Source of the DNA: Akkermansiaceae bacterium
GTDB taxonomy: Bacteria > Verrucomicrobiota > Verrucomicrobiia > Verrucomicrobiales > Akkermansiaceae
Direction of reading: 5' to 3'
Assembly (NCBI GenBank): GCA_049889715.1
Contig: JBMHCW010000062.1
Location: 6,858-70,857 of the forward strand
DNA: 64,000 bases
Shown: positions 30,332-40,232 of the stretch, piece by piece
How positions within the stretch are numbered: position 1 is the stretch's first letter
How the letters are laid out: each line of letters starts with the position of its first letter
Translations under genes and position numbers: made by a program
The notes under the pieces: generated by a model
Told to the model about the DNA's origin: nothing
Database searches by the model: none
The model's input: only the letters and a program-made list of their open reading frames with translations

Positions 30332-30600
30332 ATGAAATGTGCTCAGTGTCAGGGCACCAACCTCATCGACAACGTCCGCTTGTGTGAAAATGGAGCGGGG
30401 GTTCGGGTATATAGTTATCGTGAGCCGGAGGCCATGATTTTCAAGGGGCCATCTCAGCTTCCATACGAGCCAGGGTGTGCGCTGACTGTGGTGACACGAC
30501 ACTGTATGTCAGCCATCGTGATGCCCGGAAGCTGTCATACGGTGAAGGGTTGCCGGACTATTCCACGGCTCAGGACACAACCACTGCGGAATCGTCCTGA
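30332..30600 (+). pseudogene. Small zinc-ribbon protein, apparently frameshifted (second CxxC knuckle lies in another frame)
   Basis: Frame 1 reads MKCAQCQGTNLIDNVRL...EAMIFKG, then R/T/P-rich nonsense. The frame reached by adding 1 nt reads ...ARVCADCGDTTLYVSHRDARKLSYGEGLPDYSTAQDTTTAESS* (stop 30598..30600). A G4 run at 30445..30448 is a plausible indel site. Confidence 0.35.
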
Positions 30601-31622
30601 TGACTGAGCACGCCGATGTCGGCCACGATGTGGGCTCCGTTGGCGAGAAGAATTTCCTGGGCGTCGTGGAGGTGGTCGGGATGCACGGCGAGCAGAAGAC
30701 CACCCGAAGTCTGGGCGTCGGCAAGGAGAATTTGTAGTTCCTTGGGAACATCCGAAGCAAAGGTGGTGAATTCCTTGGCGAGCTCGAGGTTCTGGCGCGA
30801 CCCTCCCGGGACACAACCTTGTTTGATGAATTCGAGAACTTCGTGATCGATGGCAGGCACTGCGTGGGAATCGATGCGCGCGGTGAGATGCGACTCGCGG
30901 CACATATGGCTGAGGTGCCCGAGCAGGCCGAAGCCGGTGACGTCGGTTCCGGCGCGGGTCAGTCCGGTGGTGGCCAGGGCGGCTCCGGCGGTATTGAGGG
31001 CGGCCATTTCCTTGGCGGCCTTGGCTGCCAGCTCCTCGGAGGCGAGGCCTCGTTTGATGGCGGTGGAAATGATGCCCGTTCCGAGAGGTTTGGTCAGGAC
31101 CAGATGATCGCCGGCGGTGGCTCCGGCATTTGAAATGACCCGGTGAGGGTTGACCAGTCCGGTGACCGAAAGGCCGTAGAGAGGTTCGGGGTTTTGGACG
31201 GTATGACCCCCGGCAAGAGCGCAGTTGGCTTCGGCCACCTTGTCGGCGCCTCCTTTGAGAATCTGGTTGATGGTCTCAAGCGAAAGTAGATCGGTGGGAA
31301 CGGCCACGATATTCATGGCCGTGACCGGCTTGCCACCCATGGCGTAAACGTCCGAAAGCGAATTGGCGGCCGCGATTTGGCCGAAGAGATAGGGGTCGTC
31401 GACGATGGGCGTGAAGAAGTCGAGGGTCTGGACGAGGGCGAGATCGGGGGCGACGCGGTAAACAGCGGCGTCGTCCGAGCTGGCGGAACCAATGAGAAGG
31501 TCGGGGTCCTGGATGTTGGTGATGCCACGCAAGACTTGCGTGAGTTCGGCTTGGCCGAGCTTCGAGGCTCACCCTCCGCAAGAGGCCATTTCGGTCAGGC
31601 GTTTGATATCTTCGCGACTCAT
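30570..31622 (-). CDS. selD: Selenide, water dikinase (selenophosphate synthetase), selenocysteine-containing; in-frame TGA at 31569..31571
   Basis: The track ORF (30570..31532) lacks the N-terminal catalytic loop. Upstream in the same frame I read ATG(31622) MSREDIKRLTEMASCGG-TGA-ASKLGQAELTQVLRGITNIQDPDLLIG... The U-A-S-K aligns with C17-G-C-K20 of E. coli SelD. The rest (DDAAVY, DFFTPIVDDPYLFGQIAAANSLSDVYAMGG, AGGHT, LTKPLGTG, TDVTGFGLLGHL) is canonical SelD. Confidence 0.9.
31525..31560 (-). promoter_or_regulatory. Candidate bacterial SECIS hairpin(s) downstream of the selD UGA
   Basis: mRNA +12..+28 reads GCUCGGC-CAA-GCCGAAC. mRNA +29..+47 reads UCACGCAA-GUC-UUGCGUGG, an 8 bp stem with GU in the apical loop. 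I cannot tell which one, if either, is functional. Confidence 0.3.
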
Positions 31623-31708
31623 ATGGAAAAACGTTAGCCCATCGCAGGAATTTTTAAACCCTTTCCCGGTTTTCAAGAAAGGAAAGTGAGTGTTAGGCTA
31701 ACGGCACC

Positions 31709-33061
31709 ATGGCGCAGAAACCGGATCCATATTCCCTGGAAGGTGTGAAGAATCGGGAGAAATCCGGGTTCCCGTGGGTGACGATCTTTTTTGCCTTGGG
31801 ATTCGTCGCCGCGGCTTTGGCGGTAGGGGCGTTGATTCTGACCCCCTATGCCGAGAAGGTGCGTCGCAAGGTTGGGCTGTCAGAAGAGAAACCGGTTCCC
31901 GAGCCTCCCGAGCCGAAAGTCATCGTGGAGGAGAAGATCGTGGAAAAAACGGTCGAGAAGACCGTGAAGGTTCCGCCGCCGTTTTACCAGGCAAGGTCGG
32001 GCTCCCAGGTTGCCAAGACGTCGAAGGGGTATGACTTCAGGACAACCTTCAAGGAAGAGGAGGGGAAGCTCGCTTCGTCTGAACGGGTGCGGGAAGGAAG
32101 CTATGAAGCGGGCATTACCGTGACGGTGAGCCGACCCAAGGCCGCCACCACGTTGGAAGAATTGAAGTCGGTGAACCCCAAGCTGGACAAGATCCTCCCC
32201 GGTCTTCCCGAGTTGGTGAAGACGGCCAAGGTGTCCGAATTTTTTGGCAAGCTCTACGAGAACAAGGCGAAGCGATTGAAGTCGAAGGCGTATCAATTGG
32301 ATGATCTGCTGACGAAGCACAACTACTACGATTGCCAGACGATGCTGGAAATGGAGTTTCCCGGATCGAAGAGAAAAGTGTTTCTCATGCAGGGCGACAT
32401 GGATGTGGTTTCGGATGGGTCGGATGGAGACCGGCTTCCCACCATGCCAGAGAAGATTGTCAATTCACACTACTATCAACCATTCACGAGCTATGGCTGG
32501 AAGAAGACAGGCGATGTCGAGAACCCCATGATTGCGGGTTGGCGGAAGTGGTTGGCGGAAGAACGGGCCAAGCCCGAGCCCAAAGAGTCGGAGATCAAAC
32601 GCCTGGAGGCCGGGATCGAGGACATGAAGAGGAGGAGTTTTTTGATCGCGGACCACGATCCCTTTATCGTGATTCCCATCGATGTCATCGGCGACCGTGT
32701 CAGTCCTTATGGTCCCAATGTCGGAGACTATGTCGTGGTGATTCACGAGGAGAGGATCTTCCCGGCCATTGTGGGTGATGGCGGGCCGACCTTTAAGATT
32801 GGCGAGGGGAGTCTGCGCTTGGCCAAGGAGATCAACGAAAAGGCGTCGCCCTACAGTCGGCCGGTCTCTGATGTGAGTGTGACCTACATTGTTTTTCCCC
32901 GGACTTCGGGCAAGTGGAAGGCACCGGATTACGACGATTGGCGGGCGGAATGTGAGAAGCTGCTCGGGGAAGTCGGTGGATTGGGGGCGGGATACTCGCT
33001 GCATCAGTGGATCAACACCCTGCCGGAGCCGGTGGTCGAGGAAGTGGTTCCCGAACAATAA
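31709..33061 (+). CDS. Membrane-anchored protein with C-terminal glycoside hydrolase family 75 (chitosanase-like) domain
   Basis: N-terminal TM WVTIFFALGFVAAALAVGALIL and a Pro/Glu/Lys-rich linker. The C-terminal blocks GDMDVVSDGSDGD, DPFIVIP and FPAIVGDGGPTFKIGEGSLRLAKEI parallel MDIDCDG, YVVFG and GIWGDTNG..GEASISLA of fungal GH75 chitosanase (from memory). Confidence 0.55.
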   Translation: MAQKPDPYSLEGVKNREKSGFPWVTIFFALGFVAAALAVGALILTPYAEKVRRKVGLSEEKPVPEPPEPKVIVEEKIVEKTVEKTVKVPPPFYQARSGSQVAKTSKGYDFRTTFKEEEGKLASSERVREGSYEAGITVTVSRPKAATTLEELKSVNPKLDKILPGLPELVKTAKVSEFFGKLYENKAKRLKSKAYQLDDLLTKHNYYDCQTMLEMEFPGSKRKVFLMQGDMDVVSDGSDGDRLPTMPEKIVNSHYYQPFTSYGWKKTGDVENPMIAGWRKWLAEERAKPEPKESEIKRLEAGIEDMKRRSFLIADHDPFIVIPIDVIGDRVSPYGPNVGDYVVVIHEERIFPAIVGDGGPTFKIGEGSLRLAKEINEKASPYSRPVSDVSVTYIVFPRTSGKWKAPDYDDWRAECEKLLGEVGGLGAGYSLHQWINTLPEPVVEEVVPEQ

Positions 33062-37262: not shown

Positions 37263-39686
37263 ATGACGCAGATAGGGAGGATGATCAACTTGTTGAGGAA
37301 CGTCGGGATCAGACGGATGGGAATACTGGTGGCGGGATTTGTCCTGACGAGTGGAGGGATGGGCCTCGGAGCTCCCCAGAAAAAGGTGTCCAATCCTGAC
37401 TTCACCAAGGGAGGGAAGATTCCGGACGGGGCTGCCCATGACTGGGCTCTCGGGGCGACAGGAGCGCGAGGATGGATGTATTTCAACAAAATGGTCACAT
37501 CGGAAGCCCGCCAAATTGCGGTGACCGAGGTGGCCAAGGGTTCTCCGTCGGAAGGGGTGTTGAAGAAGGGCGATGTCATTCTGGGTGTGGCTGGACGGAC
37601 ATTTTCAAGGGATCCGAGAACAGAGTTCGGGCAGGCCTTGACGAGGGCTGAATCGGAGGCCGGAAAAGGGCGACTGGATCTCATCCGTTGGCGCGAAGGA
37701 AAGACCGAGGAGGTCTCGATCACCCTGCCGGTACTTGGTGATTACAGTGTCACCGCTCCCTACGATTGTGAGAAGTCAGCCCGGATTCTGGCGCGGGGAT
37801 GCGAGGCTCTTGCGAAGAGAATGGAGGACCCGAAGTATAAGCCGAATCCCATTCCCCGTTCCCTGAATGCCCTGGCTTTGTTGGCCAGTGGGGACGAGAA
37901 GTATCTTCCTTTGATCAAGCGGGAGGTCGAGTGGGGTCAGGAGTTCGAAGCCGATAGCTTCCAAACCTGGTACTATGGCTACGTCATGTTGCTTCTTTCG
38001 GAGTATGCCATTGCCACGGGTGATGGATCGGTCCTGCCGGGCTTGAGGCGCATTGCCCTCGAGTCGGCAAGGGGCCAGAGCATCGTGGGATCCTGGGGGC
38101 ACAAGTTTGCCGGGCCCGATGGACGGCTTCTTGGATATGGCATGATGAATTCACCGGGGGTGCCGCTCACTACTGCCCTGATCATGGCGAAGAAGGCCGG
38201 GGTGCAGGACAAGGAACTGGATGAGGCCATCGAGAAGAGTGCCAAGCTCATCCGTTTTTACATTGGCAAGGGAGCGATTCCCTATGGAGATCACCATCCT
38301 TGGATTCAGACCCATGAGGACAATGGGAAGTGCGGGATGGCCGCGGTGATGTTTCATAATCTTGGAGAGGACAATGGCACTGAATTCTTCTCTCGCATGA
38401 GTGTGGCCTCTCATGGGCCGGAGCGGGATCTGGGGCACACGGGGAACTACTTCAATATCATCTGGGCGGTCCCCGGTGTCTCCTTGAGCGGGCCTCAGGC
38501 GACGGGAGCGTGGATGAAGGAATTCGGGAGTTGGTATTTTGATCTGGCCCGTCAATGGGATGGCACCTTCAAGCATCTGGGACCTCCGCAAGCCAAAAAC
38601 GACAGCTATGTCCGATGGGATGCCACCGGAGCTTGTTTGTTGTCCTTTGCCATGCCGTTGAAGAAAATTCTTCTCACGGGGAAGGAAGCGAGTCGGATTC
38701 CCCAACTGGATGCCCGGGAGTCGAGGAGTCTCATCAACGACGGTCGCGGGTGGTCGAATCTGAATCGCAACAGCGGCTATGATCAGTTGAGTCACGAGGA
38801 GTTGATGATGCTGCTTGGCAGTTGGTCGCCGGTGGTCCGGGAACGGGCGGCGATGGCTTTGTCACGTCGCAAGCATGATTGTGTTCCCGACCTGATCGAG
38901 CTCCTCGAAGGAACTGATCTCGATGCCCGTATTGGAGCCTGTCAGGGTTTGGTCTTTCAAAAGGGAAAAGGCGCGGCGGCGGTGCCGGCCTTGCGGAAAG
39001 CCCTGGGCGCGAAGGATCTCTGGTTGCGGGTCAAGGCGGCGGAAGCCTTGTCGGGAATCGGCAAGGCCGCCATGCCGGCGATTCCCGAGCTGTTAGAACG
39101 TCTGGCCCAAGGGCCGACGGAGGAAGATCCGCGGGCGATGGAACAGCGTTATTTGAGCTTCGCGGTCTTCGGGCCAATGTTGAAGAATTCGCTCGAAGGC
39201 GTGGACAAAGACCTGTTGCGCAAAGCCATTGTTGCCGGCTTGCAGAATCAGGATGGTCGGGCTCGCTCCTCGGTGGGAGGGATCTATGGCAAGCTCACTT
39301 ACGATGAGATCAAGCCTTTGCTGCCGGCCATTCACGAGGCGATCGTCACGCCAGCTCCAAGTGGCATCATGTTTGCCAGTGGTGTCCGTCTGTCGGGAGT
39401 GGAAGTTTTGGCCAAGCATCGGGTCCGGGAAGGCATGACCCTTTGCCTGGAGATCATGGAGATTCACAAGTGGGGGAAGAAGGCCCGTATCGATCGTAGT
39501 TTGAAAATCCTCGGCCAGTATGGTGGGGCCGCGAAAGAGATCCTCCCGGAGATCCGGGAATTGCAGAGAGCCCTGCAGGCTCATCGCGAAGCCCGGATGC
39601 TGGCGAAGCAAATCGAGCAGATCGACAAGCTGATCGAGAAGATCGAATCGTCGACTGAAAAGATGGAGTTGCGTTCTCTCCGGTAA
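37263..39686 (+). CDS. DUF6288-like secreted protein (PDZ-like + alpha/alpha-barrel) with C-terminal HEAT repeats
   Basis: Signal peptide (MINLLRNVGIRRMGILVAGFVLTSGG), DFTKGGKIPDGAAHDWALGATGARGWMY, and the PDZ-like VLKKGDVILGVAG. The HEAT-like repeats are VVRERAAMALSRR, ARIGACQGL and LWLRVKAAEALSGIG. Start is ATG 37263 or 37281. Confidence 0.7.
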   Translation: MTQIGRMINLLRNVGIRRMGILVAGFVLTSGGMGLGAPQKKVSNPDFTKGGKIPDGAAHDWALGATGARGWMYFNKMVTSEARQIAVTEVAKGSPSEGVLKKGDVILGVAGRTFSRDPRTEFGQALTRAESEAGKGRLDLIRWREGKTEEVSITLPVLGDYSVTAPYDCEKSARILARGCEALAKRMEDPKYKPNPIPRSLNALALLASGDEKYLPLIKREVEWGQEFEADSFQTWYYGYVMLLLSEYAIATGDGSVLPGLRRIALESARGQSIVGSWGHKFAGPDGRLLGYGMMNSPGVPLTTALIMAKKAGVQDKELDEAIEKSAKLIRFYIGKGAIPYGDHHPWIQTHEDNGKCGMAAVMFHNLGEDNGTEFFSRMSVASHGPERDLGHTGNYFNIIWAVPGVSLSGPQATGAWMKEFGSWYFDLARQWDGTFKHLGPPQAKNDSYVRWDATGACLLSFAMPLKKILLTGKEASRIPQLDARESRSLINDGRGWSNLNRNSGYDQLSHEELMMLLGSWSPVVRERAAMALSRRKHDCVPDLIELLEGTDLDARIGACQGLVFQKGKGAAAVPALRKALGAKDLWLRVKAAEALSGIGKAAMPAIPELLERLAQGPTEEDPRAMEQRYLSFAVFGPMLKNSLEGVDKDLLRKAIVAGLQNQDGRARSSVGGIYGKLTYDEIKPLLPAIHEAIVTPAPSGIMFASGVRLSGVEVLAKHRVREGMTLCLEIMEIHKWGKKARIDRSLKILGQYGGAAKEILPEIRELQRALQAHREARMLAKQIEQIDKLIEKIESSTEKMELRSLR

Positions 39687-39707
39687 TCAACCCTTGCGAA
39701 GCTGCAG

Positions 39708-40232
39708 TTAGGCGAGGGCGGCAGCGCGGCCCGAAGGATCTCCGGGAAGTTCTTCGCGAAGAGCGTCGAGCTTTTCGAGAAGCTCGCTGCCGAGACGGTC
39801 GGTGATCATGTCTTGATAAGCGGCGGCGTGGTTGGCTTCTCGAATGTCCTTTTGCCAGGGCGCGGTGAAGACGAGATGGAGTTGGCGGTGGAGGTTTTCG
39901 CTCCGGAGGGTTTCCCACTCTCCGCCATCGATCCAGATCTCTCCGGTAACGGACCGTTCGATGTGGAAGTCGACTCCGTGTCCCACCTGATAGCGGATCA
40001 GGATCGTTCCTGATTCGGGGCAAAGCTTAACCGTGCCGTCGAGCTTCCCTGGCTGGTGTTCCGTCTATTCGGGATCAGGAAGATCCTCGGCATCCGGCAG
40101 TGAGTTCTGCCAGCGCCAATAGTTTTCGGCTGGAATCCAATGACCGCCCGAAGCGGGGCAAGCGTAGGCGACAAGTCCTCCTTCCAGAGTGGTTTGTTGA
40201 AGAGCGTACTGAGGATCGACGGGACTTTCCAT
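39708..40232 (-). pseudogene. Double zf-TFIIB-like (zinc-ribbon) gene, Cys-depleted and interrupted by an in-frame TAG (40065..40067)
   Basis: My minus-strand translation reads ATG(40232) MESPVDPQYALQQTTLEGGLVAYACPASGGHWIPAENYWRWQNSLPDAEDLPDPE-TAG-TEHQPGKLDGTVKLCPESGTILIRYQVGHGVDFHIERSVTGEIWIDGGEWETLRSENL... The track only lists the GTG-initiated tail 39708..39986. Confidence 0.45.

Follow-up and report, generated by a model that had tools for sequence, protein, structure and literature searches.

The selD gene of this 64,000-nt stretch of DNA (referred to below as the window) raised the question of whether an in-frame TGA close to its 5' end stops translation or is read as selenocysteine (Sec). 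The source genome comprises 4.88 Mb in 162 contigs with a G+C content of 55.7%, and its nearest named records are an Akkermansiaceae MAG (81%) and Roseibacillus persicicus (71%). Re-reading of the minus strand reproduced exactly the coordinates and the frame of the original prediction. The ATG at 31622..31620 is followed by 17 sense codons (MSREDIKRLTEMASCGG) and then by the TGA as codon 18 (31571..31569), after which the same frame runs on as ASKLGQAELTQVLRGITNIQ... up to a terminal TGA at 30572..30570. With Sec at residue 18 (U18), the product has 350 amino acids, plus the terminal TGA. Standard ORF calling starts selD at the TTG of codon 31 (Leu31; 31532) and yields a 320-aa ORF. As had been predicted, this call drops residues 1-30 and with them the Gly-rich catalytic loop, including U18 and K21.

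The U-containing translation was assigned to SelD by two equivalog profiles, whose curated cut-offs were applied to the whole protein: TIGR00476 scored 387.6 bits (cut-off 125) and NF002098 scored 357.1 bits (cut-off 299). Both domains of the family were present, PF00586 (AIRS) with 96.7 bits and PF02769 (AIRS_C) with 67.2 bits. The best match among solved structures was E. coli SelD (3U0O, E = 1.3e-79), aligned over residues 4-327. The phmmer alignment to this structure placed U18 on Cys17 and K21 on Lys20 (U-A-S-K against C-G-C-K), confirming the correspondence that had been claimed for these residues, and the TGA therefore lies at the catalytic chalcogen position. If the TGA were a real stop, with selD truncated from the TTG or a pseudogene, the frame would give exactly the 320-aa ORF that standard calling reports. 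However, such a product would be a SelD without its catalytic loop.

Orthologs of selD were searched for in the genomes of 40 relatives, 24 congeners among them. Full-length selD with exactly one in-frame TGA was found in 22 of the 24 congeners; a 23rd has the TGA in a split match, and selD was absent from the 24th (77% complete). selD with one TGA was also seen in four other families of the order (five genomes), at identities down to 48%. The codons upstream of the TGA were conserved as protein, reading MSREDIKRLTE[LM][AS]SC[GA]G within the genus. Residues preceding the ATG showed no conservation in the congener alignment, which fixed ATG 31622 as the start. The TTG of the ORF track was replaced by CTG, not a start codon, in 11 of 32 aligned Verrucomicrobial selD sequences. 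Both the protein-like conservation of the 17 upstream codons in about 30 genomes and the variation of the putative start argue against a real stop. Relatives that begin at the downstream Met and have no upstream frame had been named as grounds for abandoning the prediction; the orthologs retain the upstream frame as well as the TGA.

The codon aligned to residue 18 was examined at 110 SelD loci from many phyla. It was TGA in 97, TGT in 7 and TGC in 6, with no other codon (Sec-type and Cys-type genes, respectively). Since the genome is a 162-contig draft and probably a MAG, the TGA might be suspected to be a sequencing or assembly error for TGC or TGT, as the original prediction had also considered. 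However, the same TGA was present in 23 congeners and in other families, and the region 31480-31660 showed zero differences among contigs from four metagenome runs of four separate studies, sampled from seawater and algae. Because about 30 relatives' genomes and four independent metagenome assemblies share the TGA, it is not a base-calling error, and we regard the chance of such an error as negligible.

A further cysteine was noted near the active site. Cys15 (31578-31580, minus strand) lies three residues before Sec (C-G-G-U), and a Cys at this position was seen in 51 of the 97 Sec-type SelD genes against 1 of the 13 Cys-type genes. This distribution suggests that Cys15 could be a selenenylsulfide partner specific to Sec-type SelD.

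The genome was then considered as a whole. The tRNA-Sec was recognized by RF01852 (66.9 bits, GA 47) and by ARAGORN, which called it tRNA-SeC with anticodon TCA (UCA). The genes selB (TIGR00475, 305.8 bits, cut-off 242), selA (TIGR00474, 479.2 bits, cut-off 268) and selU/ybbB (325.8 bits, cut-off 220) were also found, so all four components scored above cut-off, and the lack of selB and tRNA-Sec that had been named as a possible refutation was not seen. No second selD was detected in the genome. The sole other match was a distant AIR-synthase-family gene (30% identity, E = 2e-6), which leaves the Sec-dependent selD as the apparent sole source of selenophosphate. The selenium genes do not form a cluster around selD, as selA, selB, selC and selU each lie on other contigs; the 64-kb window itself contains no tRNA gene, the tRNA-Sec being on another contig. 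The ORFs flanking selD are GH75-like, LolA-like, spondin-domain, S41 peptidase and signal peptidase I genes. The divergently transcribed neighbor (31709-33061, plus strand) encodes 450 aa with a weak GH75 (chitosanase-like) match and has no NCBIfam name.

The retained machinery bears on two readings of the TGA. The genome retains selA, selB, selC and selU, whose functions all require SelD, and contains no second selD; this is hard to reconcile with a real stop, which we consider very improbable. The UGA could also be read through without Sec, for example by near-cognate insertion of Trp or Cys stimulated by the downstream hairpins, and hairpins adjacent to a UGA promote such events in some systems (SRE/HRE, PMC4561486). 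However, the Sec machinery is complete, the column alternates with Cys codons only across the 110 loci, and Trp at the Cys17 position would not support catalysis; read-through of this kind is as improbable as the stop. Taken together, selD almost certainly carries Sec at residue 18 of a 350-residue selenophosphate synthetase. What supports this assignment is homology, the Sec/Cys column, the conservation of the UGA and its frame, the machinery, and the covariation of a downstream hairpin (H2, below). With a genuine Sec codon at the catalytic site, the short ORF is an annotation artefact.

Table 1. Features of selD in the window and predicted UGA-split genes elsewhere in the genome (locations preceded by a C number are on that contig; all others are window positions).
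Feature	Location	Strand	Evidence or sequence context
selD full-length CDS, selenide, water dikinase, predicted Sec at residue 18	30570..31622	-	translation, family profiles, 3U0O alignment
True selD start ATG	31620..31622	-	MS(R/Q)... begins here in almost all congeners
Predicted selD Sec codon UGA (codon 18), homologous to E. coli SelD Cys17	31569..31571	-	alignment, TGA/Cys column, four identical assemblies
Spurious ORF-track start TTG = Leu31, first codon of H2 3' arm	31530..31532	-	ORF call, relatives' codons
Hairpin H1 (+12..+28), probable spacer/auxiliary stem	31544..31560	-	folding energy, pairing, covariation
Hairpin H2 (+29..+47), best-supported SECIS candidate	31525..31543	-	folding energy, covariation, RNAalifold
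H2 apical loop GUC (+37..+39) = Val30 codon, G-U expected for SelB contact	31533..31535	-	loop GUN in all 55 genes
fdhA, formate dehydrogenase alpha subunit, 913-aa open frame	C69, match 38472-39743	-	TGA in HIDNCSRA-U-HAPTVAGL
CRTAC1-like paralogues	C11, C35 (x2), C43, C60, C61, C62 (contig 84978-87350), C72, C80, C90, C122, C153 (x2)		
Two thioredoxin/AhpC-TSA-fold proteins	C42 5581..6285; C126 16736..17707	+	TGA at first Cys of WCGPC (W-U-G-P-C)
GHP.G..U-NNG family, 366 aa	C62:74112-75209, ~3.2 kb past window end	+	..KPIYLWEMDGHPLGCV-[TGA]-NNGV..
GHP.G..U-NNG paralogue	C41:31904-32968	-	

Two hairpins follow the UGA in the places predicted for them, H1 at +12..+28 and H2 at +29..+47 (the U of the UGA is +1). 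H2 consists of seven Watson-Crick pairs and a terminal U.G closed by the loop GUC, in line with the predicted 8-bp stem with GU in its apical loop, and it is a perfect stem without a bulge. Folded alone, it reached -8.7 kcal/mol (z -4.8), a value matched by 0 of 200 shuffles. In an ungapped alignment of 32 Verrucomicrobial selD genes (31 distinct sequences), H2 was paired in 98.4% of cells, with compensatory changes at three of the eight pairs, two of which switch from A-U to G-C and one from G-C to U-A, and RNAalifold independently predicted it as the principal helix. The loop-closing pair was A-U in 20, G-C in 8, G.U in 1 and A.C in 0 of the 31 distinct sequences, the G-C count being 9 over all 32 rows. 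Both of its positions are synonymous sites (CAA/CAG for Gln, UUG/CUG for Leu).

The comparison was extended to the 110 loci. Whole-region folding energy did not separate Sec-type from Cys-type selD (mean -17.5 vs -16.6 kcal/mol), and position-specific stems were therefore compared instead. A stem at the H2 position (at least 5 bp, mostly 8, centred on +38) occurred in 55 of 97 Sec-type genes and in 0 of 13 Cys-type genes (Fisher p = 1e-4), and the loop was GUN in 55 of 55. As this set was selected for pairing, its paired fractions are inflated, but its pair-type diversity is not, and the latter is informative: across phyla, +36:+40 was AU in 26 and GC in 24, +31:+45 took five types, and +30:+46 was CG in 30 and GC in 16. 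The same peptide, SQVLR, is specified with other codons by two Cys-type genes of Virgibacillus, and these do not form the stem. H2 is thus not a by-product of the protein sequence, and its covariation argues that it is likely to be the SelB-binding element, a putative SECIS.

The bSECISearch criteria ask for a stem-loop about 16-37 nt 3' of the UGA whose apical loop contains a G. In H2, the GUC loop begins 33 nt past the UGA, on a covarying stem of 7-8 bp. To our knowledge, bacterial SECIS elements have no Rfam family; a permissive Rfam scan of 31300-31750 returned chance matches alone (mir-3960, H19_3, E > 4), and no family matched H2. Longer folds of the selD region did not stand out from shuffles (z -0.5 for 81 nt, z -1.65 for 47 nt). 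A hairpin enclosing the UGA (H0, GGAGG/CCUC) was rejected, being 75% paired with no compensatory change and a by-product of Gly, Ala and Ser codons.

The original prediction held that either hairpin could serve as the SECIS; the two are not on a par, and H2 is the well-supported candidate. H1 has 5 bp and an outer G-C closed by the loop CAA (-6.6 kcal/mol, z -2.5). Its loop starts at +19, nearer to the geometry of fdhF; in about 40 other Sec-type selD genes the loop of the best hairpin is G-rich and lies at +19..+24; and three H1 pairs show compensatory change. However, the CAA loop offers neither G nor U, and H1 was paired in 86% of cells and broken in several relatives, whereas H2 is near-invariant in position, has the GUN loop throughout and covaries strongly. 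It is unlikely that H1, and not H2, binds SelB. In the other 42 Sec-type genes, the hairpins have G-rich loops that lie at +19..+24 (about 40) or at +31, implying that selD uses more than one SECIS geometry. A spacer hairpin of at least 5 bp within +6..+29 was seen in 38 of the 55 Sec-type genes with H2 and in 2 of the 13 Cys-type genes (p = 0.001), with arm sequences unrelated between phyla. At most, H1 would be an auxiliary stem that compacts the spacer.

On these grounds, a hairpin inside the CDS would recruit SelB·GTP·Sec-tRNA(Sec) when the UGA is reached. The recruiting hairpin would be H2, presumably bound by SelB at its GUC loop, while H1 probably folds the long spacer and sets H2 near the mRNA entrance. 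Sec would then be inserted at the UGA in the A site and translation would not terminate. The product of SelD, selenophosphate, would feed SelA for Sec-tRNA synthesis and SelU for tRNA 2-selenouridine synthesis. Because the sole selD needs Sec and its product feeds SelA, SelD synthesis would depend on its own product.

The original prediction further held that this organism decodes UGA as Sec and that other genes are probably mis-split. The latter was borne out when the genome was searched, on the basis of codon usage, for read-through ORFs accompanied by a SECIS-like hairpin. The candidates comprised fdhA, 13 CRTAC1-like genes, two thioredoxin-fold genes and a family without a profile match (Table 1). 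In fdhA, the active-site TGA is followed by the hairpin CGCC-GGUCU-GGCG, and the gene is predicted to encode a second classical selenoprotein; standard callers would split it. The 13 large paralogues with FG-GAP and UnbV_ASPIC domains (CRTAC1-like) have the TGA at one column (..DL-U-S-x-x-W-R-x-V-V), followed at +21 by the GGUC(G) loop of a 6-bp hairpin; the arms of this hairpin covary from one paralogue to another. This family is among the selenoprotein candidates of Kim et al. 2016 (S9 Table, PMC4807772), and 13 copies in one genome represent a large expansion. The two W-U-G-P-C proteins are predicted to be typical selenoproteins of the thiol:disulfide oxidoreductase type.

The GHP.G..U-NNG family gave no match in Pfam or NCBIfam. 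Its TGA was kept in every homologue found, in 25 relatives and down to 24-30% identity, and the gene has a hairpin of 8 bp whose GGU loop lies at +23. These proteins may form a selenoprotein family not yet catalogued. By eye, the N-terminus of the 366-aa protein looks thioredoxin-like. Two small, apparently exported paralogues (C39 69266..69994 and C36 20325..21068, both on the plus strand) contain [TGA]-x-x-C (MTAT-U-VDC and LQPS-U-PTC) and SECIS-like hairpins, and likewise matched nothing in Pfam or NCBIfam. A fragment of a NapA-like molybdopterin oxidoreductase (C90:15182-15463, minus strand; LPAAL-[TGA]-VEKSG..) lacks the N-terminal part, and its TGA falls on what we take to be a conserved Trp of the family. 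Recoding is disfavored for this fragment, which looks like a pseudogene. Read-through candidates within the window scored weakly: no SECIS-like hairpin follows TGA 61746, and the marginal one at TGA 61422 has its loop at +46, farther out than expected.

Among 301 genomes sampled evenly across the phylum, selD was found in 22, and three of these, the source genome included, carried the TGA form. The Sec form of selD is therefore clade-specific within the phylum. In one genus of the same family, with genomes of 2-3 Mb, selD was absent. FdhA and SelD are the most widespread bacterial selenoproteins (Peng et al. 2016, PMC5029168). SelD is often a selenoprotein itself, with a bSECIS, and its Cys-to-Sec conversion has been documented in Pasteurellales (Mariotti et al. 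2015, PMC4561486). Both reports agree with the claim that Sec at this site is well documented in bacteria. Since SelD is one of the two most widespread bacterial selenoproteins, its Sec form here holds little novelty, and biology gains little from it because a Sec-containing SelD with a SECIS in its CDS is textbook knowledge. The main value lies in annotation. All selenium use of the organism would depend on an enzyme whose catalytic loop is lost in the 320-aa call, and at least 17 further genes of this genome are split through the same blindness to UGA. The result also marks a marine genus of Verrucomicrobiota as a Sec user whose selenoproteome is sizeable, in a phylum in which 22 of 301 sampled genomes have selD. 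In addition, Sec-type and Cys-type selD genes form a clean comparative set from which the selD SECIS can be defined.

Compared with known systems, the protein resembles E. coli SelD (3U0O) in family, domain order, the Gly-rich N-terminal loop and the catalytic Lys three residues past the chalcogen residue. It differs in that E. coli has Cys17 and Cys19 (C-G-C-K), whereas here there would be Sec18 and Ser20 (U-A-S-K), with a Cys three residues upstream (C-G-G-U). The SelD chain of Aquifex aeolicus (2YYE/2ZOD), which we take to be natively a Sec protein, aligns SSG-C-AAK to SCGG-U-ASK of the present sequence. Other Sec-type bacterial SelD proteins, such as those of Pasteurellales, have the UGA at the same catalytic column and a bSECIS within the CDS; the lineage alone differs.

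The RNA element shares with the E. coli fdhF SECIS a stem-loop in the CDS just 3' of the UGA and a G-U in the apical loop, which the C-terminal domain of SelB presumably recognizes. In fdhF, the minimal upper stem-loop begins about 11 nt after the UGA and has a GGUC loop, at about +22..+25, and a bulged U. In contrast, 25 nt separate the UGA from the H2 stem (base +29), the GUC loop of H2 lies about 14 nt farther out than the fdhF loop, no U is bulged, and the spacer is occupied by a small hairpin of its own, H1. GGUC(U/G) loops do occur in this genome, at about +21..+23 in its fdhA and CRTAC1-like genes. A tentative reading is that selD of at least four or five phyla (Verrucomicrobiota, Bacillota, Chloroflexota and others) shares a fixed two-hairpin SECIS, with a variable H1 at about +12..+28 and an H2 of invariant position. 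In this shared arrangement, the GUN loop of H2 would be the Val codon of a conserved Q-V-L motif, and the SelB-binding loop would lie about 14 nt further out than in fdhF, a detail we propose with equal reserve. If H1 were needed to fold the spacer, this would constitute a distinct, protein-coupled class of bacterial SECIS, and, equally tentatively, a single-copy, Sec-dependent selD could also gate the whole selenoproteome (at least 17 genes) and SelU-dependent tRNA modification through positive feedback on selenium supply. Judged from its covariation and position, H2 would work like a bSECIS but without the geometry of fdhF.
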